The translations under genes and the position numbers were made by a program. From Laetmonice hystrix (lineage: Eukaryota), in NCBI GenBank assembly GCA_965235115.1, contig OZ249436.1:13208001-13272000 (forward strand): DNA of 64,000 nt, written 5' to 3'. Below the pieces are notes generated by a model. It searched no databases and was not told the origin of the DNA. It saw only the letters and a program-made list of their open reading frames with translations. Position 1 is the first letter of the stretch, and each line of letters opens with the position of its first letter. This document shows, one piece after another, positions 27,083 through 64,000 of the stretch.

Positions 27083-27238
27083 TACTCGGACCAGCTTATC
27101 GCCGGGTGGACCGTCCGCCCGCCCTCCACCTTCTCCCGACCCCCTTCTAACTGACTACACTGACCGGCGCTGATCGAGTGACCGGCTGGCCGGCCAGGGA
27201 GGATCGAGGAGTACGTACAGGCCGTATATACTGGAGAC

Positions 27239-27343
27239 ATGAAGACGGAGACGGTGTGGCTCCAGCGTCCTGGCAGTGACGTCCCGTGGGGATTCCGACT
27301 CCAGGGCGGGGCCGACCAGACTGGGCCTCTCACTGTCTGCCGG
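27239..27343 (+). CDS. Gene B exon 1: PDZ N-terminus, ALP/Enigma (Zasp/PDLIM) family
   Basis: MKTETVWLQRPGSDVPWGFRLQGGADQTGPLTVCR|gtaggt (phase 0); PWGFRLxGG hallmark. Confidence 0.95.
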
Positions 27344-31300: not shown

Positions 31301-31667
31301 CCTTATTTTTTTTTTCGACCGCGAGGAATCTCTCCAGAGAATCGGGGTCACGCGAGTCTATTCCCCGCATGTTGATGCAGCCGATGACATCATGATCGTG
31401 TTGGTTGAGAAAAATAATTACATGACAACAAAAACACATAGACTATACATTCAGGAATACTGTGGCTCTTGTGGCCGTGGCTGGCCGATGGATCAGAGGC
31501 TAGCCTCCCCGGCCCCCGTGACACTGCCGGGTCACACAGTGCTGGAGTTATAGATTTCCCATTCGTCACCGTCGGATGGAATAGGAGCTGGTGGGAGCCT
31601 CGTGTTGGTCGGCTACTCGGACTGAGGTCGGCAAGTCGTGGAGATACAGACGACGATTTGTGTCGCC

Positions 31668-32252
31668 AACACTTTCCTATGTGTTAATGGCGGGAAAACC
31701 AACCCCGCCACCACTTTCCTATGTGTTAATTGCGGGAAAACCAACCCCGCCACCACTTTCCTATGTGGTAATGGTGGGAAAACCAACCCCGCCACCACTT
31801 TCCTATGTGTTAATGGCGGGAAAACCAACCCCGCCACAACGTCCCTGTGTTAATGGCGGAAAAATCAACCCCGCCACCATTTTCCTATGTGTTAATGGGG
31901 GGAAAACCAACCCCGCCACCACTTTCCTATGTGTTAATGGCGGGAAAACCAACCCCACCACAACTTTCATGTGTTAATGGTGGGAAAACCTACCCCGCCA
32001 CCACTTTCCTATGTGGTAATGGCGGGAAAACCAACCCCGCCACAACTTTCATGTGTTAATGGTGGGAAAACCTACCCCGCCACCACTTTCCTATGTGGTA
32101 ATGGTGGGAAAACCAACCCCGCCACCACTTTCCTATGTGGTAATGGTGGGAAAACCAACCCCGCCACCACTTTCCTATGTGGTAATGGTGGGAAAACCAA
32201 CCCCGCCACCACTTTCCTATGTGGTAATGGTGGGAAAACCAACCCCGCCACC
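31668..32252. repeat. About 42-bp minisatellite, about 14 copies
   Basis: Unit ccactttcctatgtgttaatggcgggaaaaccaaccccgcca. Confidence 0.95.
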
Positions 32253-33629
32253 TCTATAGCCCCCTTACATCTATATATTCTATATAGCACAAGACTTCTT
32301 TTTTTTTGTTTCTTGGGGGGGGGGGGGTTAAGTCAAATCTACTTTGTTATTGGCAACAAAACATTTGATTGCCTGCCCACATGTACGCATCATGTCATAA
32401 AATATTAGGTACCACTGCACATTATGTGTGTATATCCATGTGCAAGGGTTTATTTAATGCCGTTCGAGGGTTATATTCCACGAACGAGATGTTAGCAGTT
32501 ACCCATGGCAGTTTCTGTCCTGACCTGATATGTTAATACATTGTTCAGCCCCACAATACGAGAGGTATCGACGTATACTGGTCTCCTCAGGGAATCACCT
32601 GAACCGTAACAACTAGCTGTACACAAGTACCTCTATCCCCCCCCCCCCCCTCCCCCCGGTCCGAATAAAGGAAGGCAAAGGAATGGAAGTATCCCCCCCC
32701 CCCGGTCCGAATAAAGGAAGGCAAAGGAATGGAAGTATTGAAAGGAGTATAGCTGAGAATGTATCAGGTTACAATGCTCTGTGTGGACGACAGAAGGCTA
32801 TTGTAACGTAACTATGCATGCTGGGTGTCGTCAGCTGTCAAAGGTGGTTTCTTCACCAATCGCTAAAGTTGTTTCATCATTGAGTCTAGCATTGCGAAAC
32901 GACCTCTGCTGAAAGGCGGTGCCGTTGAAGCATTCACTCTACTCTGGCTAAAGGGTTATTTCTGTCGCCATCCCTTTCTTTAAATGTTATAAATGAGGTT
33001 CTACGACGCTCAGTGCATTTTAAACATAGTAGTATTTTCCACAAAATATTATGTCTTTGTTTTATTGACATACTGTTGAATGCGACAGTATAGGCTACAC
33101 TCTAGATATCTAGCCTAGATGGAATTATCTATCTAGGCCCTATAATATGTAATTCAATCGTCATTTTTAAGGAGGTTGAAAAATGCAAACATTCATAGAA
33201 TATTCTAAGCAGGTCGAGTCAAAATTACATCATGATTATGTACTTGAAGGATAGACATGTAATTTAGCCTAAGATTATCGCTAGAGTTTCATCCATCCCA
33301 GCCAACCCCCTCATCGCCTGTAACTGATGTTGGTATTATTGACAATACCGACCGAGGACGGCCTGACATCCCGTTCAGATGTTCCTGGTGCCGACCACAA
33401 ACCGTCCGACGGGGAATACCCTCTGAGGCTGTCTCATCCTGCCACTCATACCCCCACCCCCACCCCCACCCCCACCACCACCCCACCCTCAGTGGTGTAC
33501 GGCACGCCCGGATGAAGTCGTCCACGTCCGTCCGGATCCCCCAGACCCCCATCAGACCCCCCCCCCCGGGTCCTCGTGGACCTGTCCATCGTCAGCGTTA
33601 TTATCCTCTCGTCAGATGATCTCAGCGCT

Positions 33630-35833: not shown

Positions 35834-37384
35834 CAGATGTTTGGCAAGTGTCGTGACGACACGGTCTGAGACCGCGTGATTTGGCATGGATGGAGCCTAG
35901 TCTGACTTGACATCTCGTTAACAGATGTACATCCTAGATGAAGGATATACATATGTCATTCGTATCCGAGATTATACCACAACATGTGGGAATGAAAGAG
36001 GGCACAATGATTGGGCTATAACAGCAACACCTAGAGAATGAAATGTTATACATTTGTACATTTTAGGCCTACTGTATACAAATATCTTTGAAACATCTTT
36101 CAACTTTGAAAATGCATGTTCCCTGTCTGTTAAAACCCTCACCATAAAATATAAAATTTGCAATCGTTAATTTACTGCTGACCCACTTCATCCGTTGATA
36201 ATTGGTCAATTATTGCAAAGGAAGTTTCGTTTTGTATCCGGGATCCCGACCCAGTAAAAAATCGGCATGAGCGGGTCCGTGAAAGTCATTGGGTCGACAC
36301 GTAGCGATATCAGCAATCGTCCAGCATCCTTGTCACACGCAACCACACAGCCAATACATTTAGTCGTAACTTTCTTGGATTCTGTATAATTTGACATGCA
36401 CTAGGACATAATTCACCGGCATTCTAGCATACGTTACGAAGCCGTCGAATACTGAAGGCGTGAAGTTTGGTATCGATCCTGAGCTTTGACTTGGGATCAA
36501 TTCAAAAATCGGCTGGTGGTACAAAGGCTGAAACCAGTACACATAATCCGGCAGGATACCACCCATAGACTCGGCTACAATACACGTGTGACATCTGGCG
36601 GAGAACGAATTATGACATCGCAACCATGTGAAACGTCGCCGCAACACTTACAGGTTAGCTAGCTACAAGTAGCAGGCAAAGTAGGCCTATCTGAAAACAT
36701 CACAACATCCGCATGTCCAGCGTCTCAAAAATTAGGTTGGAATCAAAATATTCAGCCGGAAGGGCCGTGCTTGAGTAAACATTTTGGCGGGGAATGGGGG
36801 TTACCCGGTGCACGTGGGCCCTGAGTCCTGCATCACGAACATTGTTATAGGCCCGAGATGTATGCCCCTATACAGACAGTCTTTGCACTTTCGTTGCTCA
36901 ACGCATACAATGCATATAATTGGTAACATCTCATGGAATGGTATGACACCATTTGGTAGTTCTACTACGGACGTCGTGTGCATGGTCGTTCCCGCCCCCA
37001 TCGACCCCCCGGCGGGACCACCACCTGTGACTTGTGTAGTAGGGTTGGTTTTTACCTACCTGTGCTCTGTCTGCAACATCCTTGTGATCTCTACTCCACC
37101 ACGGGATCCTGCTAACGTATTCCCAACACACGCTTTTCAAAATTACGACTTCTCTGCAAATATAACATCGTCCCGAACGTGTTCCTCTTGTTGTATTTCG
37201 TCATGTAGAATGTCCCTAGTATTTAGCAAGTCCACTATCTTTCACTAAGTGTGAGGCTCGAGGGCGAGCCCTGGTTGGCCCGTTTCCACGTTGCCCATGC
37301 TAACGGTCGAGCTCGTTCAGCGATAGGCTTACCACCCGCCTAATATGCATTTGTTTTTCTGTTGCCCCCGCCGCCGCCGCCTCC

Positions 37385-37388
<4 letters not shown>

Positions 37389-37439
<51 letters not shown>
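37389..37439 (+). repeat. (CTG)17 immediately before the gene B exon 2 acceptor
   Basis: Read directly; ends 8 nt before the exon start. Confidence 0.95.
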
Positions 37440-37440
<1 letters not shown>

Positions 37441-37447
37441 GGTGCAG

Positions 37448-37596
37448 GTGTCTCCGGGAAGCATCGCGTCCACGGGCCTGGGTGTAGGCGATGAGATCCT
37501 GCGGGTGGGAGACGCCGATACAGCCTACCTCTCTCACAGCGAGGCCCAGAACCGCATCAAAGCTGCCGGCAACCTCCTCCAACTCCACATCGCCAA
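37448..37596 (+). CDS. Gene B exon 2: C-terminal part of the PDZ domain (149 nt, phase 0 to 2; absent from the ORF track)
   Basis: gtgcag|GTG ... GCC AA|gtaagt; VSPGSIASTGLGVGDEILRVGDADTAYLSHSEAQNRIKAAGNLLQLHIA. Confidence 0.95.
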
Positions 37597-40500
37597 GTAA
37601 GTCCTATTCTGTCTGCTTTCCTGGCAACCAGACCCTAAAGAATGTGTTCCGGGAGGTAAATATCTGGTGGATATTTCCCGGGTTCGATGATGCTGTGAGG
37701 ATCCTTCAGCCGGAGAGAGAGGGAGATTATTACAAACCTCGGTCGTGGTAGGGAATGGACAGTTACAGGCAAGATGGCTGCCGTGTGTACAGATGACGTG
37801 CCGGGAGAAACCATACTTTCTGCTAGGAAACCAAAATGGCGATCCACTGACTTGATGAATAATGTTTTTGCCTTAACTTTATGTACCAACATGGATAATA
37901 CTAAGAGGTTCGATGCCCTGGATGCACGCCGTGGTGGAAACTGTCGTGTATTATCGTTATTTTAAGAACTGATCATTTTCAGATATCAGGCCGAAACAGG
38001 ATAGGGTTACGTTACGTTTTCATCAATAAAATTCTGGATATTTTTCAGAATTTTTAAATTTTGAAATAAAAATTCAATCATTTACACATACCGCTCAGGA
38101 CTATCTTCGTGACCTATCCTATTGGAATATTAGTAATAAGGATTAGGCCTATAGGTGAACGTTTGTAAGTAAATAATTATGTATGCCTGTATGTGTACAC
38201 ATGGATCTTCCCATCTCTCTATGCGTACACATACATGTATGCAGATATAGAAGCGGAATTAAATTATATACAGGGGGCCACTTGGATGCCTACTCATGTA
38301 GGCATCCAAGTCTACATCTATACCTAGATATAACACTTTAAAACACAAGTGTAATTTGCATTCTTTGAACCACAGAAGAGAGGTGACCTTTTGAAATTGA
38401 CCCAACCCGTACGCGAGTTATTGATTAGAACAGCGGGATCTTCATAAAGAGGAATTGATCCAGATTTTTTAATTAAGATTAACGTTTTCGACGGACCAAT
38501 ATTGCTACGATAAAGAATTATATCGATGCGCTCCTTGCTATGGAGATAATTTTGTAAGTTTCTTATTATGACCAAATGTTTTCATAAGGTTGTGAGGATA
38601 AGAGAGACGTATAGTACTAATCTTTTGGATGGGTTCAGAAAATGGGGTTGCGTTACCGTGTCGTATGTAAACAAAAACACACAAGGGTTCGTTACACCTT
38701 ACTGGAGAGTCAGACACAGCACATATGTAGAGTACAGGTCCTACAGGCCGTGTTGTGAGATAGATGTTCAGTACTTAAGTTAAGCAATATATGAATAACG
38801 TATACATTAAAAGGGCAAGAAGTCATGAAGATGATCACATTATATAAAACACTATTCATAAGTAAAGTGTACCGTGAGTGAACTACTAAATGCGTGTGAA
38901 GTAATGATTGAATGATATCCCTCACATCAGGTCCGGGCTATTTGTAAACGAACCAGCATGTACAAGTTATTGGAATCAACATCGATTACCACATTGGTAA
39001 CAGCCAAGGCTTCTGTTGCACGAGGAGCCCCTGAACTATATTTTGCCTGGAAGCATTGACCTAGATATGCGAGAAGTCTCGAGCCTCCTCCTCCAATAGG
39101 CCGTCCCCCCGGGCAGCACCCTCCCCTCAGTGGAGGACAGTGCACGACCTTGTGGCTAACAGGTTATAGCTGACCTCGTGAACTGGGAACCTGGGATTTC
39201 GGGGAGCCAGATTAGCGGACACATTAGCCAGGAGAGGTTTATGCTTTGCTTGGGCAGCTGTAGATAATGTGCCACAGATTTGGAGATGTTAAGTACGATA
39301 TGTGAGGCGGGTCCCATAGTTATGATGCAGAAATGCGCTCGTAATCTTGCCTTCGGTATAGAAATGTAAGTTCTGGCAATGTTCGTACACAATGTCTTGC
39401 AGGATGGTCTGAGATTGAAGATCGGGTGACTATTTCTGTGACGTAATAATTGACCGTTGGTGCTTCCAGCTGGACATAGGAATCAATTGACATTTTAAGG
39501 CGTATATCACAAATAGAAATAAAATGTTGATATAGCCACAAGAAAACAAATGAAATTTGGAATTCCAAGTTTGTGACCGATCAGTAATCACTTCCATTAA
39601 CCTTCAAAGTTTGTACGGATCACGTGGTACAGCAAGGCAGGCTTATATTCTGTTGACTTCATTGTCATCTTCATTATTTCAGTGTCTACTGTCACTATTC
39701 AGGCGGTAATGATGATAAAACAGAAATACGTTTTCACGAGCTAACACCGTCCGGAGACTATTCTATTAGCATCCCAGTAAATAAGCAGGAAACACGGGCG
39801 GGGTAAGTGTTCTCTCGGTCCTACAGAATCTGATCACATCGGGAAGAGGTCGAGGTAAACAGGTGTTTCTAGTAGACTAACGTAATACACCGTGCCATGT
39901 CGGCAATCTGTCTTTGGCTTCTCTGTCTACCTTTCTCTTCGACTCGCTCGGCTCATTTTTTGTCTAAATATTGAATACGGTTGACGAAATTCTCCCTGCG
40001 CGATTATTCACGCAGAGTCATCAGTTTAGCATGGCAGGCGGAGGCGAGTGGTGATAGGCGAGGTTTGATAGGGCTAGAAGCCGCGGATACTGCACTATCT
40101 CCCGGCCACCAGTGTTGGTACTCGGGAAAACTTCCTCCCGTAAACCTGCAGTGTATAACCAACCGCAGCCAGAAATAACCGTCCGTATTTTCTCGGACGA
40201 CAGTATAGTCAGCAGTGCAACGTGAACAATCATTCGTGAACGCCGTCTGCAGCGTTCCTACTACCCCGAGATGGCCGCGCCATGGACCACAGGTTATAAA
40301 GTGAAACGATCCGCCATCTTGGATCCCCCCATGGGGGTTACTTCCGTTAAGCGAGTAGCAAGCCTGTGTTGACGGGAAGGTTTGAAAGTATACGCCTGCA
40401 CCTTTTCGCCATCAGGATTCACGAACAGCCGGGTGCAACTTTCCATAGAGTCATTCGATTTGTCTGGGGCCGTTTCCGAGATAATGTTGATTTTCGAGTT

Positions 40501-46333: not shown

Positions 46334-46725
46334 TATGCAACGCGGCTAAACCAACAACTGACCAAGATGAATTTAGACAACGCCCCGGACACACCATCTA
46401 ACTACGGTGGCCACAGTAGCCCTGGCGGCTACAACCCGTACAGCCCGACAGCGACCAACTACTATGACCAATACGCTAGCCCGCCGTCTCCCCCGGCCCT
46501 CTCCTCTCCGAACATCTACTCCAGTCCCTCGCAGATGGCGCCACCGATGGCCCCTCCTCTGCCGCCCGTCCAGCAGCCGTTATACCGGTCCGCTCCCACA
46601 CCTCCACCCGTCATGCCGGATGCCGTGCTCAACATGGCCGCCAAAGGAGCACCGGATAAAAAACCCTGGGCCTACGCTCCTGACGCCAGCATGCTGAAGG
46701 AACACCGTGATCGTGTCCGCCGAAG
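46334..46725 (+). CDS. Gene B exon 4 (392 nt, phase 0 to 2)
   Basis: cctctccag|TAT GCA ... CGA AG|gtaagc; YATRLNQQLTKMNLD...PDKKPWAYAPDASMLKEHRDRVRR. Confidence 0.88.
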
Positions 46726-48041
46726 GTAAGCATGCCGGTTTCCATTACAGAGATCAGCAGCAGGAGCAATCCTCTATCACCAGGAGCTCACCGGACACCA
46801 TACAATGTATACGGTCATACGGTTTATGAGCTAATCATGAGTGGGTATATTCATGGGTTTGAATATACAGGACTTATCCGTGAGATAATACTACAGTTCC
46901 CTTCGACTTCTGCACCTGCTAAAACACAGCAAGGGGCAAGCGCGTCTTCAACATACATCATGATACATACATGCTCAAAAACAATGCACCTTGAAAGCCA
47001 AACACGTTCAGACTTACTCTCTAACAAAGAACAACAGTGGCCCATTTTGGAAGATATTCGGACAGCCTAGTCTAACCTCTTAAACACGTCCATGCTTACT
47101 GCCTGGTTTTACATGGCCTTATCTAATACAAAAATGCAATCCTGTGTACACCGTTTTTGAGGATGCTTTTAGGTCCATGCTTTGTGCTCTCCGTTTTCTG
47201 GGTTATAGAGTAAACAAAGTTGATGTATAATGTTGCCTGGTAGAATTATTTTGGAATAGTTAACATACTCGAGAAATGTTGGAGTAGGCTTACTATAGAC
47301 AAATAATCTTGTGGCAATCATTACTGATAATTTAACAACAAAGGGCTGTAATCTCACAATAATGTTAATCCAAGATTTTTCAGTAACAATCCAGTTGAAT
47401 TTCTGTGTTCGTTATTAGCGTTTAATTCATATCCTTTTATATTCCGGTACAATACCTTACACTTTCCACATTTTCCGTATTTTCCACACGACACTCAATG
47501 CACGGCATGTTTTCACTTGACAAGTTTAGAATATATCGATCAGTATGCAACTGAATAGCTGACCTTGCCTCAGTGTGCCTGATTAGTCTGCTACCTGCTA
47601 TATGATATCACGCTTAGCTTACAGGTTATGTAGAATGATATCTACGAATCTGTGTCGAGCCCGAATATCATTTTGCACCAAATAATTTTAAAATTCCAAG
47701 AGTTCATATAAGGTTTTCTTTCGCATCAGGATGCTTCTAATGTGCAATTATTAGAAACTTCCAAAATGGTCAAAAGACGTGTGTTCATGTGATCCAAATT
47801 TTGTTTTGAACGGTATCTGTTCGCAACCCTTTTTGAGATTACTACATCGATTATATGAAGATCTACAGATCCCCTCCTTCCATAGCTATCTTTCGGTTAA
47901 CTGATTACCGAAGAACAAGTCGTGCATTTAGAGCCGTCCGTCCGTGGATTTGTTCCGGTGTGATTGTGTGTCATTTTCTGTCCTTAACGCTCACAGCATT
48001 TTGTGTGTACCCTAATCACTGAGAAGATGCTCTTCTTGCAG

Positions 48042-48293
48042 AGGTGCAGGGTCATTGCCTAAGTATCAAAACCTGCTAAACATGCCGAGTTTTGAGACCT
48101 CACCACCTCATCCTCAGCACAGAGCTCCGACCCAACCGACGTCACCTCCGGCCTACTACGCTGGGCCGGAAGGAGCTACAGTTGCGCATGCGCAATATAA
48201 TTCCCCCCTTAACCTCTACACGGACGAGAACGTTAGCGATGCTTTTGCAGGTCAGACTGGGGGAGAGGTCACCGCCCTCAGGAGCGGTCAAGG
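48042..48293 (+). CDS. Gene B exon 5: ZM motif (252 nt, phase 2 to 2)
   Basis: ttcttgcag|A GGT ... CAA GG|gtatgt; GATVAHAQYNSPLNLYTDENVSDAFAGQT. Confidence 0.92.
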
Positions 48294-50233
48294 GTATGTG
48301 AAAACGAGGCTTCGTGTAGAATTAAGGTTTTGTCTCGTTCTTGTCATGTGATACCCAAAGCGAACGTTAATTATGAATGTTGAAACTGTAAAAGTTCTGT
48401 TTTAGGCATGAAATGACACAAGATCGACTTGTGTAGGCCTATAGATTAGTCGTTGGAAAACTAAAGGCAATGGAAAGTATCATGGATATGGATTTGTGAG
48501 CCTCGTTCTCACCAGTGTTAACTGCCTCGTGTGTTGTTCACTGTGACCAAGTGGATTGTTTCTTCCTTTTTTTTTAAATTTCGCATTTATTTCGCATTTA
48601 TTAGAATTTGAACTATTAGCCTATTTAAATTACGCTGAGATTACTGTGATATGGCCAAGATGCAATATTTTCTTATTGCACTCACGTCAAATCGACATTA
48701 TTGGTCACCGCGAACTACAGTGAAAATTATTTACAATAGCAGAACCGTAAAATCCTGATAGATTTAGTCGAAGTTGCCCTAATACTTTTCCCTGTGTATG
48801 GATCTATCCTTGCCGGATATACCCGACAAAAAACGACCTGCTTTGCTTACATTCACCCTTTCGACAACTCTGTCGCCTCTACTAACCTTTGTTGAATGAT
48901 GTCACCTTCAATGAACACACTTCCATTGATGAAACACAATACGGAACCATGATGACACCCACCACGCCCACTGTGAACACCCTCGCTCTGTGACACCAGA
49001 ATATGAAACTATTGAAAGCCAGTGGTATGAGTGTCCACGTTAGCTCGTTATTGTGTCCACAATCATATGATGTATTCCCACCAATGTGATATTCCGTCGA
49101 GAAGTTACGAAGTTACGACACAGGATTTCTTCTTTCTATCAATGGAATCATGGTTGTTATTTATTCTTTGTTCCATGGCTGTCATCAAGACAATATCGGT
49201 AACTACTTATACCGTTTCTCATAACAAGATGTCTCATTTGGAGAATGGTGTATTCGTGAGAAAAGTTTGGGTATTCAGACTTTTTTTGAGCCTTTGTGAA
49301 TTTAATATTATTTTAGCTATTGTTTTAGTTATATTCTTCTTTTTAGCGACTTCTTTTTAGCAATGTCTCTAACTGCTTCATGCAGATTCCAATGTGCACG
49401 TCATAGAGGAAGCATTTTCGTTATTTTCTTTAGGAAAGTGCAGTAAAGCCATGATATAATGATGATGCTTTGCAAGAAATATCCAACAAATCTTACTTTA
49501 ATTTTACGTAGAAAAGAAACGTTTACAGAAGTTTTGCCTCGGTGTAAAATCTAATCTGAGATCCCCATGATTCTGACAGAATCAATATTCAGGCAACCCC
49601 TTTCTAAGGTGTTGCTACTTTTGGTAAGTTATCGAGAGCATCATGAATAAAATCCGATATTTTTGTAAATGAATCAAATTGCAATGTAAATCCTAAGACT
49701 GAAGGATATCGTTGATATCTAACCATGTTACCGGTACTCCACTGAAATCATTGAAGTCACTCGTCTCCCATAGCTACTATACTAATAGGGTTGGCCTATT
49801 TGGACCTCATGGAAATGTTGATACTGTAAGCCTAGGCCTACTATTATGTGCACAACCTCGTCATTTTTATATATTTAAGATGTAGGCCTATTATTGTGTT
49901 CTGTCTCGCTGTAGTTAACCGTTACCTGTTGATGATTCAGAATGCATTACGTACATGAATTTGGTGTTCATTTTTGTTCAGACCCCCATTTTTTGCCTGA
50001 ACTAGACATTTAGTTAGCCTACTTTGGTTGTACGTATTCTACACAGTTGATACTTCATTTTGCTTTTGAAAATATATGACTGACATATAGATATGACATC
50101 GAGATCAAATTTACAAAAAAGATAGACGCCGACGTAATTTAAGGGGGCAGAGAACGCACCTCGGTTTCCTAAATCAGAATTATTCGTGTTTGTAATGTTA
50201 TATAATCTTGATTGCCATTATATTCGTTTGTAG

Positions 50234-51294: not shown

Positions 51295-51538
51295 TAAGTG
51301 GAACTAATTTATATTTACCGTCCCAATGTCCCAGGATATGGCCTGTACCCTGATTAAGTGAAACTATAATCTATGTTTACCGTCCCAATGTCCCAGGATA
51401 TGGCCAGTACCCTGCTTAAGTGGAACTATAATCTATGTTTACCGTCCCAATGTCCCAGGATATGACCAGTACCCTGATTAAGTGGAACTATAATCTATGT
51501 TTACCGTCCCAATGTCCCAGGATATGGCCAGTACCCTG
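51295..51538 (+). repeat. 62-bp tandem repeat, 4 copies, containing the exon 7 acceptor
   Basis: tttaccgtcccaatgtcccag|gatatg recurs with AG ends at 51334, 51396, 51458 and 51520. Confidence 0.95.
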
Positions 51539-51691
51539 TGCGCCAACCCTCAGCAGACGATGAGCTCTCGTTCAGCGGTGTTCGCAGCGACACCTATGAT
51601 CACATCCCGTCAAGGGCCTTCCACAAGCTGCAGTCTTTGACCGGTGGGAGTGAGATTGACAGGTCATCGATTCGGCAGGCGGTTTCCGGCG
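51521..51691 (+). CDS. Gene B exon 7 (171 nt, symmetric phase 1)
   Basis: GYGQYPVRQPSADDELSFSGVRSDTYDHIPSRAFHKLQSLTGG...VSG then G|gtaaga. Confidence 0.85.
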
Positions 51692-52819: not shown

Positions 52820-52939
52820 GCGATGACGATGTCGACAATTATAGCGACGGTCCCATTCGGTATCGTGGTGGAAGCATCCCTTCCAGATCTTTCCGTATGT
52901 TGCAGTCTATGACAGGGTCGGAGAATGACCCAATACCAG
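52820..52939 (+). CDS. Gene B exon 8 (120 nt, symmetric phase 1; absent from the ORF track)
   Basis: cacttgcag|GC GAT ... CCA G|gtgagg; DDDVDNYSDGPIRYRGGSIPSRSFRMLQSMTGSENDPIP. Confidence 0.88.
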
Positions 52940-53333: not shown

Positions 53334-53492
53334 TGGCCTCCAAGCCCTCACGCCGAATCCTGCGGCGGGCTGAGAGTGCCCCCGGACCCCGGGATGATGA
53401 TGATGGGGTAGACATCAGTTACGTCGGGGCCAACATCCCATCTCGCAGTTTCAAAATGCTCCAACAGTCTGTCGGCGAACCTACTGATTATG
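53334..53492 (+). CDS. Gene B exon 9 (159 nt, symmetric phase 1; possible in-frame upstream acceptor 21 nt earlier)
   Basis: ggttgcag|TG GCC ... TAT G|gtgtgt; ...DDDDGVDISYVGANIPSRSFKMLQQSVGEPTDY. Confidence 0.85.
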
Positions 53493-54566: not shown

Positions 54567-54703
54567 ACCCCACATCACGTGGTCCTGACGTCCCGCATAA
54601 ACGTCAAGGCCGCAAGGTCAAGGTCGTCACCTTGAGGTCCAAACAGCCAGCTGAACCGGCCACCCAGCAACCTACTGTGGAGGACCGTGCCACCGATTTC
54701 TAA
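54567..54703 (+). CDS. Gene B terminal coding exon 10 (absent from the ORF track)
   Basis: ttttttcctcacaacag|AC CCC (phase 1); DPTSRGPDVPHKRQGRKVKVVTLRSKQPAEPATQQPTVEDRATDF*; AATAAA follows at 54816 and 55820. Confidence 0.8.
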
Positions 54704-54821: not shown

Positions 54822-56333
54822 CAGATTACTAGACGAAAGGTTAATTCATCGATACAAGAAAGACTTTTGGCTATGCTTCTTGCCCTCGCCGCTCGAAATG
54901 TCTCCTTAAGACACGTTTCACTCCGTCTGACTTGATTGACCCTTGTGGTTTGCTGTTTAGTTCACACCGACGTGATTTGGAAAGAAAAGCGTTTGAATCC
55001 GAAAAGGGCCAATGCCTCTTTTAATGTCTCCAAATGAATTCTGCTCCGATATCATTTGCCGCCGTTGTAGATCTGAAAGCCAAAAATAGCAGATCGTTTT
55101 GTGGCAGTATTTGGCTGCTTACATCTTATACCGCTGATGGAATGACCCATGCATTATTCGCTCTGCGATCTAGTGCGGTAATGCTATACTTTGTATACAA
55201 AATTATTTGTTCTTTTCGTAGAGAAAGGATTGGCCATTGAGTGACGAGGTGCCAAGTCCCATAATGACGTAGGCCCCTTAGCCGTTATTTAACGTGTAAT
55301 ATATTATAGTCAAGTGTTTTTATTACTAGTAATTATTTTGTAGGAACCCTGTGATTTATTCTTCCCAAGCATGTACATTACCATGCATGTGTTTCTGCTC
55401 CTCAGTTCCTTGTTATACAATTTCTCTTACCGAAACGAGAAAAGAGATATTGGTAAAGTTACTTTTTTTGTTGTTTCAATTGCTTTTAATGATATTCGTG
55501 TACATTGTTAAAATTTGCAGCAATAAGATGTTAACGAACCTGTTTGATGCTGACAGTTTAATCTAAGAGGTTCGTCAGAATATATCTTGGTAAAAACCTG
55601 TTCTATATTTACCGCAGGTGAATGCTTTAAGAATATGCGTGATGAACTTGTTATATTTCTGTCTTGTATTTATTCAATCAACACTGGAACCATGCCTTAT
55701 GACGAATATAAACGTAAGTTAACTTATGCCTCAGAACGGAACCATAGAAGACGCTCTGACTCATTATCACGTGATAGGAGACATGTCGCTTCACTCCCGT
55801 CTTGATTCTTTGTTTATTTAATAAAATGTAGTTTCCCCACATTTGGAATTATTTGTTCTGCATAACTGCTTTCTTCTAGAAATAACGTTGATATCTTTTG
55901 CAAAAAGAGAAAAGACAGAAAGAGTACATGTATGTCGAGTCGCTTGAAATACATAGAGTCTAGTAGTCATCTAAAGAAGAACGTTTGGCCCTAGGTAGGC
56001 TATAATCTTGAAGGGAAGACATATTCCCGATTGGCCCATATACCGACAATCTCCAGCTTGTTCTCAATTAAGGCCTGCTCCATCGATCGAGGGAGCATTG
56101 ATCACACTTCCGGTAAATTCCGATTTAATATTGCTGTTAAAAAAAACTAGAAACACTACATGAAGGCCAACCGGCTGAGTTTAAATGCTCACTTCCCGAT
56201 CCATCACCCAAATTCCATTGGTATAGCAACAGGTAAGTGTCCGGAATTGCCACTTGTTTTGACCTCGGTTCAGGGATGTTCCTCGCGTCGTTTGTCGTCT
56301 GGTGTTTGTGACGTTACGTTATATTGGTCCCAG

Positions 56334-56414
56334 ATTCGGGCGTGCAGAACGGTATGGAGGAACCGTTGGTTGTGAGACCGTCCGACCAACACACCCCAGA
56401 GGAACAACAACAAG
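56334..56414 (+). CDS. Module C exon 1 (81 nt, symmetric phase 1)
   Basis: ggtcccag|AT TCG ... CAA G|gtaagc; DSGVQNGMEEPLVVRPSDQHTPEEQQQ. Confidence 0.65.
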
Positions 56415-56529
56415 GTAAGCAAACAGATCTTTTCTCCAGAAGGTAATCACTCCTTATCTCTGAGAGACTTTGCTGGTATATCGAGTGGGGGAAAAAAATT
56501 CAACTTCTATAATTTTTAGCCAGATGCCA

Positions 56530-57412
56530 TAATATTTAGAACATGAGATCATCTGGTTATTTGGGGTCTGTGGTACAAATTTCAGATAAATAGGTCGAAA
56601 CGTCTACAAATAGGGCCATTTTTAAAAAATCGTGTCAAAAATTGCAATGCCGGACCAGGGTCATTTGCGTGGAGCCGCACGTCTTTCAAGCGGGAAACTG
56701 CCCTGAAAAACAGTCCCGTCGCGTTGAATGACCCAGTATAGTGCGTGTCCCAATTAAGGCAGAGTGTCTGAATGACGTGACGTCAAATGTATGAAATGTC
56801 CCCTGCCAAAAACTGGTGGCCAGTCCATGGATTACACCATTTGGGATTCCCTGTCTGAAAAAGTCTATAAAGGTCGCAAACAAAAATTCGCCGAGAACGA
56901 ACTAAAGGAGAAAATTCGGGAAAGGTGGGAGGGAATTACTCTAGAAAAAGTCAGGAAGTCAGCCGGGATATTCAAAAAGAGACTAAGGCCCGGTTACTAA
57001 GGGCTGTGTGTGAACAGTGAACAGGATGGGGGTCACATCGATCACCTTTTCATTTCAACTGAAATAGGTAGAGATGACACTTACATGGCTCTCCGGCAAT
57101 GCATTTTTTGACATGTGATTGGCTTGTGTGCCTAAAATTTTCACCACAAATTGCTATTAACCATAGAAAAGGATAACATGATGTCCTAAATATCAGTGAC
57201 AAACAGTGAAAATTGTAGAAGTTATAATCAAGTAAAGAGTGTTCCATACACAGCCGGGACCAACTCTGCCGAGGACGCCTGGTCCGGCATTGCAATTTTT
57301 GACATGCAGTTTTTAAAATGGCCCTATTTTTTTTAGACATTTTGACCTATTTATCTGAAATTTGTACCACATGCCCCAATTAACTAGATAATATCATGTT
57401 CCAAAATGTTTA
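56530..57412 (+). mobile_element. Tc1/mariner deletion derivative with about 125-bp imperfect TIRs
   Basis: 56535-56660 is inverted at 57279-57408; internal MDYTIWDSLSEKVY...LKEKIRERWEGI...FKKRLR and frameshifted GGHIDHLF match a Tc1/mariner transposase C-terminus. Confidence 0.8.
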
Positions 57413-57863
57413 GGCCCACCCGACTTGATACCAATCAGACAAGTACAACTATGAATCTCACAGCTGCACAATGTTGGTTGAACAAAAGGAAGCATGGGAA
57501 TCGTGGTCTGAACAGAAACCCCGGACCTCTATCTGATTCTAGATGAATTCTCTATACCCCTTTGGTCTGCTCTCAGATCGACGTTAACATCGAAATGATC
57601 CATGTTCTATTCAGGGTACAGAATAGTAGGCGGCAGGCCTATCCTAATGCATTTATATGGATAAAGAATTGATAGTGTTTCTTCTTAAAAATTTCGATGA
57701 TTTCTTTTTTCATTCGGAATTCATATTTTCATATCATATCTCATCATCACAAACCCAACGGGAAGTAAAAATACGTAGGCCCCCATTTTTCCATCTACTC
57801 AAGAAGTATATTTGATATGCATTGAAACTTTAAGAGGTTCAGATTCCGTGTCCTCTGTTATAG

Positions 57864-58055
57864 CTGCTCTTGAACGTCGGCGGCGACGTCGGCGGCGGGG
57901 CAGTCTGGGTCGGGCAGCGTCGCAGTCACCGAACCGTAACCGGCCCCGCGAGCAGCCTCACGAAGCCAAACCCGAGTTCGATGAGGGCGCCTATCTGGCG
58001 GGACGCGTCGCTATCCTCCGCTCAGAGGACGAACTTCCAAAAAAGCCATATAAAA
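57864..58055 (+). CDS. Module C exon 2 (192 nt, phase 1), FDE repeat copy 1
   Basis: gttatag|CT ... AAA A|gtaagc; ...ERRRRRRRRGS...KPEFDEGAYLAGRVAILRSE. Confidence 0.82.
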
Positions 58056-58828
58056 GTAAGCAACACACTAGATGTCGTCAGTTGTTTACAGTTGGCAGCC
58101 TGTGTTAGTGACCCTTGTGTCGGCGCCTATTGAGATGAGTGATTAAAGAAGAGAATTCATATGCCAAGATGTTCTTGTTTGCCATTAATTTCGTAATGTT
58201 TTGTTTCTGTCAAACTGTAATCTACACTCTACCCTTTTGTCAGGTTTTTGCCCTGTCTGCAACGTTCGTCTTTATCTCTATTTTATACCCTTTAAGATCA
58301 AAGTGAAAGAGGATATACGTGGGATTCATCCCTAACAGGCCATATTCCTCCTACTACACTCCAGCGGGGCCGGACAATAACCATAATAACAATCGACTGG
58401 CAATGAAAAACATACATGTTTTCTTAAGTAAGCAGGACATGGTATCTCTGACCTCTTCACAGTCAACAGTTGATTATGGACCTTATCTTTCAGTGGCTGA
58501 CATTTTCCTTTTTCGGGTTGGGGGGGGGGGGGGGGGCAGTCCCGATCCACCCAATTCAGGCGTCCCTCCTGACTTGTTCTTGAATTCTGACAATGAAAAT
58601 AAAGCCACCTCAGACCTTTCCATAATTCATCCTCTTTCACTTCGATCTTGAATCTGGACTTCTTCGGTTTTTCATGGTGCTTACCAATTGCTTAACTTAA
58701 AGCACTATTTGAGAAAATTCTGCATCTTAAGCGTTTGCATCTTCGGTGTCTTGACGATTCCTTGATCTTCATGACCTGTGGTAAAGGCGGCTCCTGATGA
58801 CGTCAGAGGATTGTGTGTCTATGTGCAG

Positions 58829-58987
58829 AACGAATGTCAATAGAGGAGGTGACACGTGACCAGCAGAGAATGCGTGAGATCGAGGATGAAGCCAGAAAAG
58901 CACGACAGCTATCGGACTTCGACGAGCAGGCTTGGCTCCAAGGCCAGGCTCCAGTATGGGGAGGGGAAACTCGTCCGATTCGTTCAG
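58829..58987 (+). CDS. Module C exon 3 (159 nt, phase 1), FDE repeat copy 2
   Basis: atgtgcag|AA ... TCA G|gtgcac; ...QLSDFDEQAWLQGQAPVWGGETRP. Confidence 0.82.
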
Positions 58988-60113
58988 GTGCACAACATGG
59001 CGTGCGCATGGCAATGGATGCATGCCTTGTTATAGCACGAATTTTATTTTCCATTGTCGCGAATGTTGATGTGTGCATTATATTCAAAGTTGTTTTGCTT
59101 TATTTTACACCAAGAACACTTCTGCCGGCTTTCAAGAAATGTGTCTCACGAAATTTAAGGCTATGAAAATTGCGAGAGGCAGTAACACTTTAAAAAATAA
59201 AAGCTTTATGACAGTTAGAAGGTTGCCCAGAATAAACATGTCAAACAAATGCGATTCTATCACTTTGTTACGTGTATCACCCTTTAAAACAGCGACATAC
59301 CCGGTGACGTCACAGCTAGCCGTGCAAAAGATTTCTTTGTGAAGAAAACTATACCACAGCTGATAATTAGTGCTACTCTCCATTGACCGGTTGTTCATAT
59401 CAAGATGGCGACACCCGCCTTTAGCAAGGTCTACCATAGTCTTAATCAACTATTTCTTTCAGTATTGATCTGTTCATATATCACAATGCATGCATATCTA
59501 GGATTAGAGGACACTGTCCAGCGCCTTGGTGAATTTCACCAGTCATATTTATTTTTATTTATATTTTCAGACTGACGTTGTTTAAGTCGAGGTCCGTTTC
59601 CATGGGACTTCGATTTAAATGCGCGCTAATGTCACACTGCTTGAATTGTTGCTTGATCAATTAATAGAACAATAACATTACGTCTCTTGGTGAGAACGTG
59701 GCGTAGGAACGGTTTCGAGTAGTCAGTTTGTTCTTCGCCTATATAGTGTCTTATTTCGATGCTTTAATAATTTATGCGTTTAAAAACTTCCATTACTAGT
59801 ATAATTACATATATCCCCAATTGTTACTAAATTAATTCTCGGCAATCAATACATGGAGCTTGCTTAATTCTATGCTGTAAGGAGAAGAACGCAAAAGGTT
59901 ATTATGAAGCGGTGCCGTACTGGTCAAGATAGTAAGAAATATCATGTGATCATGTGTAACTTTGGACTCAAGAAACATTGGGGATTCTACGCGCTGCCTA
60001 GAATGGAGAGCTACCATACATATATTTCCGTAACGTACAAAGAACTTTTCGAGACGTTTCTGAACATCACGAAGGGCCAATACCTAACCGTTACCTTTAT
60101 GTTGGTGGCGCAG

Positions 60114-60260
60114 CTGGCCCGCCCCCTAAGGCCAAGCAGCCGTGGGAGAAGGAAGAATCGAGCCAGCCTTTTGATGAGCAGGCCTTCCTGGCCGGCACAC
60201 TCAACATCATCAACGACCCCGACAGTTCCAGGAATCTCCCACCTCGACCACCCAAAAAAG
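60114..60260 (+). CDS. Module C exon 4 (147 nt, phase 1), FDE repeat copy 3
   Basis: ggcgcag|CT ... AAA G|gtcagg; GPPPKAKQPWEKEESSQPFDEQAFLAGTLNIINDPDSSRNLPPRPPKK (frame not in the ORF track). Confidence 0.82.
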
Positions 60261-60471
60261 GTCAGGCCATGCATGCTGGAGGCAAACAGCAGATTTCGTA
60301 TTCCCAATGTCGAAGTTACTGGTACTTTCCCGACCAATCCTATAGCAGTGTACTGAACAGTGTTGTCTGTGTTGGCCCTTTACGTCTGTTCTTATGTTTG
60401 TGTCCCATTCGTACAAGTCGACCTGTATTTATTGGCATCCCTTAATCTGTCTGTTCTACTGACCGATGTAG

Positions 60472-60579
60472 ATACAAGCCAGAAACCAGATTGGGCCCGG
60501 ACAGTAGAACATAAGAAAAAAGATAAGGCTTTCGAGCGGTCCCTGTCCAGTCTGGCCAGGGAAAGGAAGCGGGAAGCAG
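60472..60579 (+). CDS. Module C exon 5 (108 nt, phase 1), charged spacer
   Basis: gatgtag|AT ... GCA G|gtaaga; TSQKPDWARTVEHKKKDKAFERSLSSLARERKREA. Confidence 0.78.
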
Positions 60580-60703
60580 GTAAGAGAGGCTATGAATTAC
60601 GTGCAATCTTCGTCGAAAGCTTCGGTAATAAACCACACCTATAGACCTATGTATTATAGCAGTGATATGTAACGTGTGTTATGTAACAACTAAACTTCTA
60701 CAG

Positions 60704-60844
60704 ACAAAGCAGCTAAACAATACATCGGCTCTGATGATGACGACGCTGGTAATGTACGTGATTTCGACGAGAAAGCGTATCTGACAGGAAATGTACCAAT
60801 ATTCGACGATCAACCGAAGGCCCCACGACCGATGGATTCACCAT
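60704..60844 (+). CDS. Module C exon 6 (141 nt, phase 1), FDE repeat copy 4
   Basis: cttctacag|AC ... CCA T|gtaagt; KAAKQYIGSDDDDAGNVRDFDEKAYLTGNVPIFDDQPKAPRPMDSP (absent from the ORF track). Confidence 0.85.
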
Positions 60845-61103
60845 GTAAGTATAGGCATATAAAATATACAGACGATAGCAGTTGTGTTCGGAGTTGTGTC
60901 AGGGGTACCCCATAGATGGCTGCGCAATGATTGCGGGGAACAAGAGCACCTGTCCACCTCTCTGTGTTTGGAACCTTGCTTATATGTTTATAAACATAAA
61001 AAGAAATTTATACTTGAATGCCTTTTACGACGAAGTAAAGTTTGTGTGTGACGTCATAAGTATACCTTGTGACGTGACGATAATGTCACTGTGGATTAGT
61101 TAA

Positions 61104-61506
61104 AGCAATCAGCGAGTATCTATCATTTCAATGACTCCGAAATGCAGACATGCATGGGATGTTAGGTCAAATAAGGCCTTCGACTACATAAATCAATAAA
61201 TGTATACCCACAGAAATAGGGAAATCTAATTAAATTCAACATTCCAGTTGTCTGTTGTTGCCATGAAGTGAACATAGATTTATTGCCCGATGAATTTCAT
61301 TGGCTGTTCAAGTCAATGCCAGGTCAACCTGCCATGAGACATTCGCTTCATGGTGACAACAGGCAACTGGAATGTTGAATTTAATTAGATTTCTCCATCT
61401 CTGTGGGTATACATTTATTGATTTATTTAGTCTAAGACCTTATCTAACCTTACAGCCCATGTCTGCGTTTTGGAGTCATTGAAATGAGAGATACTCGCTG
61501 ATTGGT
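61104..61506. mobile_element. TTAA-flanked foldback MITE with about 170-bp inverted arms
   Basis: ttaa|AGCAATCAGCGAGTATCT ... AGATACTCGCTGATTGGT|ttaa; the arms pair over most of the element. Confidence 0.85.
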
Positions 61507-61817
61507 TTAAAACCAGAATAGCTGGCATCTACGAGAAGGCCGTACCCCTTCCGGTAGCCAAAGACTTCGTTCGTGTTCACGAGGACAAAGTTTGACTAGG
61601 ATAATGGGACAGGGTAAAGTAGAAAAACGTAAAAATGGATCAGAAAAATAGATGATACATAAGGAATCGTACCGTTAGTCTGGGCAGCCCCCCCCCCTCC
61701 CCAATGAGAATATACCTTTTATGAGGAGATGTTGACCCCCCCTTCCAGTGTCTGTGACCTTGTCTCATCTCTTCCTCATTGGTTCCTCTCTTTCAACCCG
61801 TCTGCTCTGAACATAAG

Positions 61818-61940
61818 TCAAAGTCGAGTCACGTGAGAAATACGAATTCCAAGCGTTGGCAGATTTCAAGAAAAGGGGCGAGTTCGTAGACCCTTTACAA
61901 GCAGCCCAAGAGGCAGCAGAAACACTGCCGGAGATCCCAG
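61818..61940 (+). CDS. Module C exon 7 (123 nt, phase 1), spacer
   Basis: Long pyrimidine tract, first AG is ataag|TC; KVESREKYEFQALADFKKRGEFVDPLQAAQEAAETLPEIP; donor G|gtaaga. The AAG acceptor is weaker than usual. Confidence 0.65.
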
Positions 61941-62305
61941 GTAAGACAGTGGCGACATGTGGAGAGTGTAGACGGATGGCCTGTTACCTCCTAATTTGGT
62001 GTATGTAGATGAGATTATTTGAAGTCAGTGATGCATCTTGAACAAGTATAGCGAAGCACTGGTACGATTTGTTCTCTGCAACCATTTAATTATCTCAAGG
62101 AAAGCCATTATGTTGCCTAAATTGTGTTGCAAGAATATCATTTATGCTGAGCTTAGGCCTATGGATTATTTTGGGTTTTTTTTGGATGCGCGGGTATGGC
62201 CTCCCTGTTGTTACCAATATGATCACCCCCTTGAGAACGGTGGCCATGATGTAAGCATATAACCGATGTCATTGTCTTGTCCTGTACGAAACGTGCTGCC
62301 TGCAG

Positions 62306-62404
62306 ACACCGACGAGACGGACAAGGAACCATTCGACGAGCAGAAGTTCCTGCAAGGACAGCTATCACTAGTAGGAGGCGAGCCTAACCCTCTGCCACCA
62401 AAGG
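62306..62404 (+). CDS. Module C exon 8 (99 nt, phase 1), FDE repeat copy 5
   Basis: gcctgcag|AC ... AAG G|gtaacc; TDETDKEPFDEQKFLQGQLSLVGGEPNPLPPK. Confidence 0.85.
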
Positions 62405-63483
62405 GTAACCTTTTCCTCCCATCAATGTGTTCAAAGAACTGTTCTTTGTTCTAAATTGTCTACTCACCCTATCTATGTATGTATGTATATGTTTGGACGT
62501 TTATAGCTGTACATGTTCGATCACATTTCCATCTGTGCTTGTGGTAAATATACTACAGCTACAACAAAGCACAAATGGAAATGTATTTTGTTGCGTTTAT
62601 TATTATTTTTTTAAAATTATTATTATTATTTTTAAACAAGATAGTGCAATGTTCGCCGTTACTGCTGAGGTACCCCTCACTGTGACAAATCACTTGCATG
62701 AAATGTGTGGTTACATTATGAGATGATACACAGAGCGTATTAATAAAAGCAACGCTTTCATGTAGAGTATATTTTTTAATTAACCGACTGGCCATGCCAG
62801 CATGAAAAAAGGAGCACCAATTAGACCTGCCTACTGTGATGTGTTGGTCACCGCGGAATTCATTCCGCGACCGGACCAAATCTGGTGGGGCACTACTGCG
62901 CCACCTATCGGAATGAGATAAAAAGTATATTAATTTTATTGATAGAAATCCTGCGGGGTATAGTTCATAGAAATAGATATAATTAGTTCATAGAAATAGC
63001 TATAATATGTCATATCAATTAAAAGGAATGATCCAGATTCTAGACTAACTGCATCTGATTCAGTGATCTAAAACAAATACAAATGTACTTTCTGAATGCG
63101 AACCGACAGTGTCTGGAGGCTGCCTCTCTCTCCGGTTTGTATTCAGTCTCATGCATCTATCGTTTATCGATGATACAGGTTTCCGCAAAAAATACCAGTT
63201 GATATTGAATTATTTGAACTTTGTTGGAACCTTTGTATTGGAACCTGCAAGACCTACTGATTTCAATTAATTGAACTTGTTCTGTTGTTTTTTAATTAAA
63301 TACCAAAATTGAAAAAGAAAAATATTCTCTACACAGGTATCTTTTTCAGTCAATTCTTTATATTTAAATCATACAAGGTTATATGCATATCTGTAGATGG
63401 ATACTCTATGTATACACTGATGTCATACTATAAACTTGAACACCTACCTTGTGTTAACGTTCGCCTGTCGATTGACTTTGTAG

Positions 63484-63627
63484 AGTCCTCCGTTCCCAAG
63501 GAGATCCCAGAGTGGGCCAAACGTCGGCAGTCGGTCGGTGAGGTCGACCCTCAGTATTACGACGAGCAACTCTACCTGCATGGCTGTATCCCACTCGTCA
63601 GCGGCGGCACCCCAGATCTCATGCCGG
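63484..63627 (+). CDS. Module C exon 9 (144 nt, phase 1), FDE repeat copy 6
   Basis: ctttgtag|AG ... CCG G|gtaagt; SSVPKEIPEWAKRRQSVGEVDPQYYDEQLYLHGCIPLVSGGTPDLMP. Confidence 0.85.
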
Positions 63628-63930
63628 GTAAGTGATCGCCTGCCGACGACAGAGAGAGGAGTACAAACATATGAGCGAACCAAGAGGTCATCAGGTCAAA
63701 TATATTTAGGTCCGCTTTCTTCAAAGCTGACTTCCGGCGGAAGAAGTAGCATCTTTATATCGTATAGCTGGAGGGAGGGGGTGTCTGCCTTCGTTTAATT
63801 AAGGATCCACTTCACCAATTAGCCTTTGTTAGGACAAAGACTGATTGATTCCCCACCCTGCAGGGTCATAGAGCCGCTATATACAAACAAATTGTCTATT
63901 ATACGGCTCACTTCCTAATTTCATTCACAG

Positions 63931-64000
63931 TTAAGACGCTTCGCAAGAAGCCACCTAAACCAAAGGAAGAGGAGGAGGAGGAAGAGGAGAATGCGCACGC
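63931..64000 (+). CDS. Module C exon 10, partial (runs off the right edge)
   Basis: ctaatttcattcacag|TT AAG (phase 1); KTLRKKPPKPKEEEEEEEENAH. Confidence 0.7.

Follow-up and report, generated by a model that had tools for sequence, protein, structure and literature searches.

The DNA analysed here is a stretch of 64,000 nucleotides (the window) from the annelid Laetmonice hystrix, positions 13,208,001 to 13,272,000 of contig OZ249436.1 (assembly GCA_965235115.1). Its subject is a gene on the plus strand in whose 3' part a short motif, [FY]DExx[FWY]LxG (the FDE motif), recurs along a chain of small exons, downstream of exons encoding a PDZ domain and the ZM motif (DUF4749). Coordinates above 64,000 continue the window numbering into the downstream DNA of the same genome. 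Nine exons of the repeat chain lie complete within the window; all of them are bounded by AG and GT, have lengths divisible by 3 and give, when joined in phase 1, 398 codons with zero stops, which reproduces the splice ends, lengths and stop-free codons described for them in an earlier reading of the window from its letters (the sequence-only reading). The G+C content of the exons is 47-64%, compared to 37-44% in their 200-nt flanks. The exons of the chain are given below, the P numbers denoting related open reading frames (ORFs) and proteins described further on.

56334-56414, plus strand: E1, first exon of the chain, without motif; open frame, AG/GT ends, G+C of 55.6% versus 41.0% in the flanks; relatives without a match.
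57864-58055, plus strand: E2, 192 nt, phase 1-1, AG/GT ends; Arg-rich start (RRRRRRRR), then copy 1 (EFDEGAYLAGRVAIL).
58829-58987, plus strand: E3, copy 2 (DFDEQAWLQGQAPVW); AG/GT ends; matched by P0013, a single-exon ORF of another assembly.
60114-60260, plus strand: E4, KQPWEK and copy 3; matched by ORF P0025, and by tblastn to P0035 and P0036.
60472-60579, plus strand: E5, PDWAR, Lys-rich, no FDE copy; open frame, AG/GT ends, G+C of 51.9% versus 42.2% in the flanks; less certain.
60704-60844, plus strand: E6, copy 4 (DFDEKAYLTGNVPIF); matched by ORF P0015.
61818-61940, plus strand: E7, no FDE copy; open frame, splice sites and G+C only; uncertain.
62306-62404, plus strand: E8, copy 5 (PFDEQKFLQGQLSLV); matched by ORF P0011.
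63484-63627, plus strand: E9, PEWAK and copy 6 (YYDEQLYLHGCIPLV); matched by tblastn to P0036 residues 351-370 and 407-426, with 65% identity.
63931-64077, plus strand (the window holds 63931-64000): E10, copy 7 (AFDEDDFLAGRIPVLRG); completed from the downstream DNA.
68994-69149, plus strand: exon with an FDE copy, from downstream DNA; equals the copy of the relatives that precedes V-R-x-S-V-D-R-E-L-P.
69831-69959, plus strand: exon with an FDE copy, from downstream DNA.
71150-71242, plus strand: IPSRAF exon, from downstream DNA.
72869-73036, plus strand: YKGTNIPSKTF exon, from downstream DNA.
73226-73638, plus strand: 413-nt exon, from downstream DNA.
74530-74562, plus strand: terminal exon of 11 codons, ending in QVTDF-stop; gene end at 74562.

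As had been supposed, the chain continues beyond the window, running on to a stop 10.5 kb past its end, and the full chain reads through to QVTDF-stop without internal stop. E1 to E14 are 14 consecutive exons, every one of them of phase 1-1. E2 was aligned by tblastn to residues 265-326 of P0036 and 75-158 of P0035, and for E7 a weak AAG acceptor and an in-frame alternative acceptor at 61824 were found.

The FDE motif occurs six times in the window, always on the plus strand (at 57977, 58918, 60170, 60763, 62332 and 63558). These are the positions reported before, and they are the only matches of the pattern [FYW]DE..[FWY]L.G in a six-frame translation of the 64 kb. When the window was shuffled with preservation of its dinucleotides (n = 200), the mean number of matches was 0.005, with a single match in one of the 200 shuffles, compared to the six observed. 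Further copies were found past position 64000, where 59 kb of downstream DNA of the same genome contain three, in exons 63931-64077, 68994-69149 and 69831-69959, giving an array of nine. In the whole genome (627 Mb), a strict back-translated motif pattern detected four sites, three of them in the repeat gene, and a reversed control pattern none. The sole strict-pattern site outside this gene, FDEFAYLCG at C1:64718654-64718679, was observed where about one chance match is expected from an information-content estimate.

A set of 74 copies from 35 proteins was gathered with a relaxed motif pattern, on which the count therefore depends. In this set, the conserved positions were F (86%), D (89%), E (100%), A at position 5 (81%), Y/F (99%), L (99%) and G (84%). 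Conservation extends about 8 residues beyond the motif Gly, and the resulting module of about 17 residues consists of an acidic run, [KRE][PDE], FDExA[YF]LxG, [RKQ], [IVL], P/S/N, [ILV], [VLI], G and G/D. A second motif, PW[EQVK][KR], precedes many copies, often as PW[EQ][KR] located 9-16 residues upstream of the module, and all nine sequences of an alignment of the relatives (A2) share its Trp in one aligned repeat. The PxW motif pointed out earlier corresponds to it and is present in exons 60114 (KQPWEK), 60472 (PDWAR) and 63484 (PEWAK). Among the nine copies, identity within the 27-nt core reaches 75% at codon positions 1 and 2 versus 41% at third positions, and the 60 nt upstream of the nine cores are 30% identical. 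As third positions and flanks have diverged while positions 1 and 2 have been kept, the motif is apparently maintained at the protein level, which fits the protein-level selection proposed by the sequence-only reading.

The introns of the chain show features of their own. Those at 56535-57405 and 61100-61510 contain inverted-repeat elements resembling non-autonomous transposon remnants, the former with arms of 76 and 52 nt (87-90% complementary) that flank 618-719 nt and the latter folding back almost perfectly through arms of 120 and 53 nt. That the first intron holds what is left of a transposase was considered and rejected, ORF 56776-57000 having matched no transposase family. The long intron after E10 carries two tandem-repeat blocks (64150-65480 and 66070-66800), recognised by their recurring open frames (ETGQRSWVETLGD... 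and a unit of about 103 nt), and similar repeating frames are found within the window at 23139-23492, 26800-27095 and 31585-32408. Chain introns are also contained in three listed sequencing runs of the species (word share 0.80-0.84).

The relatives of the array were searched with a six-exon profile against 1.84 billion representative proteins, yielding 34 matches with E≤1e-3, of which 5 had E≤1e-10 and 2 had E≤1e-30; the top matches reached 4e-36 (6 stretches) and 1.8e-33 (8 stretches). Every named relative is an annelid sequence annotated as 'hypothetical protein': Ridgeia piscesae KAK2179228.1, Capitella teleta CAPTEDRAFT_224947 and Paralvinella palmiformis LSH36_165g01012. P0035 is the Capitella model, whereas P0001 and P0036 are ORFs on short contigs. 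Uninterrupted ORFs on such contigs measure 477 aa in 1820 nt (P0001), 733 aa in 2423 nt (P0036), 480 aa in 1897 nt and 501 aa in 3026 nt, and because these long frames are uninterrupted on short contigs the sequences must, as judged from their frames, be spliced transcripts or intron-free copies. Many of the short profile matches are single-exon ORFs of other assemblies, which correspond to E3 (P0013), E4 (P0025), E6 (P0015) and E8 (P0011).

In P0036, the second half of a PDZ domain is followed by a PWAYAPD segment, IPSKTF, an Arg-rich segment, six FDE copies, IPSKIF and a final ...EVTDF, and the protein runs collinear with the window between 37448 and 73374. In P0037, the PWAYAPD segment is joined directly to the Arg-rich segment, and the repeats come next. 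The longer relatives have from 5 to 10 copies per protein, spaced by 27-125 residues. In alignment A2 (nine sequences), individual repeats align one to one between species, and because of this correspondence the array is old and not a recent expansion. The conservation in related species on which the sequence-only reading depended is thus found, annelid relatives carrying the array.

Three of the 34 matches (P0007, P0008 and P0012) were rejected as unrelated chance look-alikes because only a short word, [FP]DEQxxL, is common to them and the repeat, and the flanks differ. P0008 and P0012 are bacterial-looking and contain FDEQAYLAxNPD...HY..FG..EGR repeats, and P0007 is a protein of 739 residues with eight near-identical 66-residue repeats (LFPDEQNWLSGQVQVLIILSG...).

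The repeat had been described as unassignable to a known family, and the searches carried out in Pfam, PDB sequences and the full-text literature gave the same answer. No Pfam family was matched by any of the ten exons at E≤10, and among six homologs tested at E≤1 none was matched in five, P0030 giving one chance-level match below the cut-off. A profile search of PDB sequences with the repeat alignment gave no match at E≤10, a search of the ESM Atlas with P0001 gave no usable one, and no paper turned up when the full-text literature was searched for the Capitella locus tag or for strings of the motif. Word-indexed protein searches for longer proteins returned none with the six-exon alignment at E≤0.01 and none with the Pro-rich exon at 46 kb, and a scan of metagenome contigs with P0036 gave no confirmed relative. 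Several known short motifs were compared with the repeat and rejected. In the eIF4E-binding motif (Y-x4-L-hydrophobic) the order of Leu and aromatic residue is swapped, and the conserved positions do not fit the LIR, PP1 RVxF, AP-2 and GAE ear motifs, the 1-4-5-8 alpha-actinin EF34 helix or the N-terminal LDEDEILG of tropomodulin, as these are generally described.

The identity of the gene was obtained from the exons upstream of the chain, which are as follows.

27239-27343, plus strand: first PDZ exon, with ATG; its 13 best PDB matches are all PDZ chains of the ALP/Enigma family.
37448-37596, plus strand: second PDZ exon; Pfam PF00595, E 5.9e-9 (on 37304-37600); tblastn to P0036 residues 1-50.
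46334-46726, plus strand: Pro-rich exon ending ...PDAVLNMAAKGAPDKKPWAYAPD...RVRRR; tblastn to P0036 residues 54-159, E 9e-11; the same segment opens P0037.
48181-48267, plus strand: ZM motif (DUF4749); PF15936, E 3.5e-7, 31.3 bits versus a cut-off of 28.7 (48016-48351).
51521-51691, plus strand: phase 1-1 exon, HIPSRAFHKLQ; read from DNA.
52820-52939, plus strand: phase 1-1 exon, YRGGSIPSRSFRMLQ; from tblastn comparison with relatives and reading of the DNA.
53334-53492 (start possibly 53313), plus strand: phase 1-1 exon, YVGANIPSRSFKMLQ; aligned with P0036 and P0035 in their IPSKTF region.
54567-54703, plus strand: alternative terminal exon, ...VEDRATDF-stop; phase-1 acceptor and stop read from DNA; tail like that of P0037.
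56160-56232, plus strand: candidate alternative first coding exon, with ATG and phase-1 donor; joins E1-E16; proposed from sequence only.

The 13 PDB chains matched by the first PDZ exon comprise PDLIM1/3/4/5/7, ZASP/Cypher/LDB3 and the Enigma homologue, and for the second exon PDLIM7, PDLIM1 and ZASP are among the PDB matches, together with PSD-95-type PDZ domains. A (GCT)n microsatellite (37350-37440) abuts the acceptor of this second exon, and its open frames read poly-Ala or poly-Cys. The same ZM motif was recovered by a whole-genome family search. Between ZM and the repeat chain, exons 51521-51691, 52820-52939 and 53334-53492 each bear an IPSR[AS]F..LQ motif.

Proteins of the ALP/Enigma family usually have one to four C-terminal LIM domains. 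It had been suggested that such domains might lie past position 64000 also in this gene, a suggestion that did not hold, as none was found between the window and the next gene. No Cys/His LIM pattern was detected on either strand from -40000 to 88000 in window numbering, no Pfam LIM match was obtained for 114 downstream ORFs, and none of the 54 matches of PF00412 in the 627 Mb genome falls within C1:13.17-13.33 Mb. Because the same strand carries a PDZ domain and a ZM motif upstream of the chain and no LIM is present in the locus, the latter is, as predicted from its sequence, a LIM-less ALP/Enigma (ZASP-like) paralog. The muscle-type scaffold of the sequence-only reading finds a counterpart in this assignment, since the PDZ and ZM/DUF4749 exons place the gene in a family known from Z-discs.

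Other members of the family are found in the same genome. A probable canonical ZASP/Enigma locus, a separate one with ZM and LIM, is located 3.6 Mb away on the minus strand (G000:C1:9620474-9649207); four ZM (DUF4749) matches are spread there over 25 kb (C1:9.62-9.65 Mb), which may be alternative ZM exons or two genes, with three LIM matches just downstream. Head to head with the repeat gene, on the minus strand (36-18085, reaching about -511), is a second ALP/Enigma paralog without LIM. Its PDZ exons (18085-17981 and 11717-11574) split the domain at the same point, its ZM is at 36-146, and an ORF ending in ...GEDVGTSDF-stop is found about 0.5 kb before the window. This neighbour has no FDE motif, the repeats being present in only one of the two paralogs. 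Downstream of the repeat gene, the next gene (about 87.7-111 kb, plus strand) is polycystin-1-like, one of its coding exons being about 4.9 kb long; its matches are C-type lectin, PKD, REJ, GPS, PLAT, Polycystin_dom and PKD_channel.

Both ends read for the repeat gene, QVTDF-stop at 74530-74562 and ATDF-stop at 54701, conform to the class I C-terminal PDZ-binding pattern (x-[S/T]-x-hydrophobic). Among the full-length tails of the relatives, five of six end in [VI]TDF (P0001, P0002, P0030, P0035 and P0036) and P0037 ends in STDF. The protein encoded by the alpha-actinin gene of the same genome ends in GESDL.

The structure of P0001 was predicted with AlphaFold2 and alignment A2, with a mean predicted local distance difference test (pLDDT) value of 51.6, a predicted template modelling (pTM) score of 0.18 and 260 of the 477 residues below 50. 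No strands and no helix packing between copies were seen in the model. At all six motifs (positions 50, 97, 149, 195, 249 and 309) a helix of 5-6 residues is predicted, beginning two residues after the Phe (H52-56, H99-103, H151-155, H197-201, H251-255 and H311-316). The C-terminal 80 residues, which include IPSKIF, DPIERL and HDPDxY, are predicted to be helical, with block means of pLDDT of up to 80. Thus, the disordered region postulated by the sequence-only reading is also predicted by AlphaFold2, with a short helix at each motif, and, as is the case for short linear motifs, each module forms a conserved island within a poorly conserved, predicted-disordered region. Because of the predicted disorder with one helix per motif and of the spacing of 27-125 residues, the model fits a set of independent short docking elements on a flexible chain, not a folded repeat domain.

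Taken as a whole, the array is interpreted, with moderate confidence, as the disordered C-terminal two-thirds of a LIM-less annelid ZASP-like protein, in which the modules would act as multivalent docking sites. What the sequence is, in terms of gene family and motif array, can be stated with high confidence, whereas the proposal on how the array works is a tentative one. According to it, each FDE module would be a short, partly helical docking site for one copy of a partner, and nine modules on one flexible chain could hold several copies of the partner, for which alpha-actinin and the LIM-bearing ZASP paralog are candidates, in the Z-disc or dense body. As all 14 exons E1 to E14 are of phase 1-1, including or leaving out any of them keeps the frame, so the number of docking sites could be set by splicing of these symmetric exons; the differences between P0036 and P0037 and the copy numbers of 5 to 10 are compatible with such splice-set valency and equally with differences between species. 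The TDF tail, a class-I-type PDZ ligand, could bind the PDZ domain of the same protein or that of its paralog.

Some observations allow the repeat chain to be read in part as a separate transcription unit, which, with a promoter of its own inside the gene and the ATG exon at 56160, would produce a protein of 801 residues with the TDF end and with neither PDZ nor ZM, which could coexist with the PDZ isoform. The ATG exon 56160-56232 has a phase-1 donor and, joined to E1-E16, gives an ORF of 801 codons from ATG to stop with zero internal stops, nine FDE motifs and five PW-type motifs (18.8% D+E, 16.1% K+R and 11.1% P). The stop-bearing terminal exon 54567-54703 lies between the PDZ/ZM exons and the chain, and P0001 starts with a Met just before its first repeat. 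However, the Met of P0001 may be internal, because the N-terminal part of this protein is similar to the segment that precedes the Arg-rich stretch inside P0036, and in P0036, P0037 and P0035 a single ORF holds upstream segments (PDZ, PWAYAPD, IPSxSF) together with the repeats. In addition, exons 51521, 52820 and 53334 have phase-1 donors that fit the chain, and the G+C content of the ATG exon is barely raised (47.9% versus 45.5%). A separate unit is therefore considered possible but rather unlikely.

The nature of the modules themselves could also be different. They might be extra LIM-binding sites, functionally akin to ZM, so that the protein would be a multivalent hub or cap for the LIM-bearing ZASP paralog, extending the ZM-LIM oligomerisation of Drosophila. 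The hydrophobic stretch after the Gly (RIPLV, KLNIL) looks strand-forming, and LIM domains bind strand-forming peptides; a separate ZM+LIM locus is also present in the genome. According to published work, ZM-LIM contact drives the oligomerisation of Zasp and LIM-less isoforms block it (PMC6910826, PMC9751615), and for the PDLIM LIM domains a binding of extended peptides with low sequence similarity is predicted (PMC10754285). However, no DUF4749 match was obtained for any of the ten exons at E≤10 and the resemblance to ZM is by eye only, which makes this explanation unlikely. Far less probable is that the repeats are units of one folded domain: a conservation over about 17 residues exceeds that of many linear motifs, and one copy per exon is usual in many repeat domains, but the spacing varies between 27 and 125 residues, the linkers are unconserved, acidic and Pro-rich, the copy number varies from 5 to 10 between species, and the AlphaFold2 model (pTM 0.18, mean pLDDT 51.6) lacks strands and helix packing between copies. 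The least credible explanation, and a very improbable one, is that exon duplication in a disordered, tolerant region produced the array as a neutral side effect, with no specific function. Symmetric phase-1 exons duplicate easily, but seven near-invariant residues have been kept while synonymous sites and flanks diverged, and individual copies are orthologous between distant annelid families.

Returning to the multivalent docking array in a LIM-less ZASP-like protein, several points weigh against this interpretation. Exons 56334, 60472 and 61818 lack the motif and have no counterpart among the relatives, their support being frame, splice sites and composition, and the taxonomic range is that of three named proteins. 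The motif helices are predicted with moderate confidence (10-residue block means of about 50-70). Direct binding to F-actin or tropomyosin, which are acidic, is disfavoured by the acidic character of motif and flanks. The union of the PDZ exons and the repeat chain in one transcript is seen in P0036, whereas at the present locus it is suggested by compatible phases only, and the ATG exon at 56160 and the terminal exon 54567-54703 permit a separate PDZ-less transcript. Expression in muscle is suggested by the family alone, and the expression described for Platynereis zasp (PMC5167519) may concern the LIM-bearing gene.

A broader proposal, speculative and improbable as it stands, is that annelids may have swapped the LIM domains of a ZASP paralog for another oligomerisation device, made of up to nine or ten helical FDE motifs and an alpha-actinin-like TDF tail that would act on a ZASP-type PDZ domain. 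If this were true, the protein would be a self-assembling scaffold of the Z-disc or dense body, with a valency set through the splicing of its symmetric exons, and would represent an independent answer to the control of Z-disc growth, for which flies use ZM-LIM contact.

Proteins of the ALP/Enigma family are central scaffolds of the Z-disc, and their genes are known as myopathy genes in humans. Within this family, Zasp66 and Zasp67 of Drosophila are described as accepted LIM-less members acting as 'blocking isoforms' (PMC6910826, PMC9751615). They resemble the repeat gene in having PDZ and ZM without LIM and a LIM-bearing ZASP gene elsewhere in the genome (PMC6910826, PMC9751615). In contrast, no FDE-type array or TDF tail appears in the descriptions of Zasp66/67 in these papers, a distinction drawn from description and not from sequence, and the annelid locus holds two head-to-head LIM-less paralogs, one of them with repeats.

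The array can also be compared with the linkers of Zasp52 (exon 15e), ZASP/LDB3 and PDLIM1-7, which are likewise long, disordered and from the same family. These linkers are variably included, are thought to carry short actin or alpha-actinin motifs and are needed for Z-disc stability (PMC13521563, PMC10754285), contacts with alpha-actinin and actin being predicted for the PDLIM linkers (PMC10754285). However, they are placed between PDZ/ZM and LIM, or between LIM domains, whereas the annelid region is C-terminal and is made of many small symmetric exons with the same conserved motif in most of them. The Zasp52 linker is stated to resemble in sequence neither the human members of the family nor the other ones of the fly (PMC13521563). 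Alternatively spliced disordered linkers with short motifs are already known in the family (PMC13521563, PMC10754285), and the present repeat matches nothing curated or published in the resources searched.

With respect to the tail, the binding of ALP/Enigma PDZ domains to the end of alpha-actinin is established (PMC5081203). The alpha-actinin tail (...ESDL) shares x-[S/T]-D-hydrophobic-COOH with QVTDF and ATDF of the repeat gene, TSDF of the neighbouring paralog and E[VIS]TDF of the relatives; it differs in its last residue, Leu there and Phe in the repeat protein, and the likeness is one of sequence only. With respect to the array, the LFa motifs of FAM21 likewise place a short acidic/aromatic motif many times along a flexible chain, which gives multivalent binding. 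This is an analogy of principle only, the protein, the motif and the cellular system being unrelated.

The role of the disordered linkers of ALP/Enigma proteins is described as an open question in the field (PMC13521563, PMC10754285). Against this background, the locus is an unusually clean natural case, with a sharply defined motif, its own symmetric exon for each copy and conservation across distant annelid families, in a paralog that appears to have lost its LIM domains and gained a tail resembling a PDZ ligand. As all its named members are currently annotated as 'hypothetical protein', the motif deserves a family entry. Within the ALP/Enigma family, it offers a handle for finding what such linkers bind and whether splicing tunes their valency.

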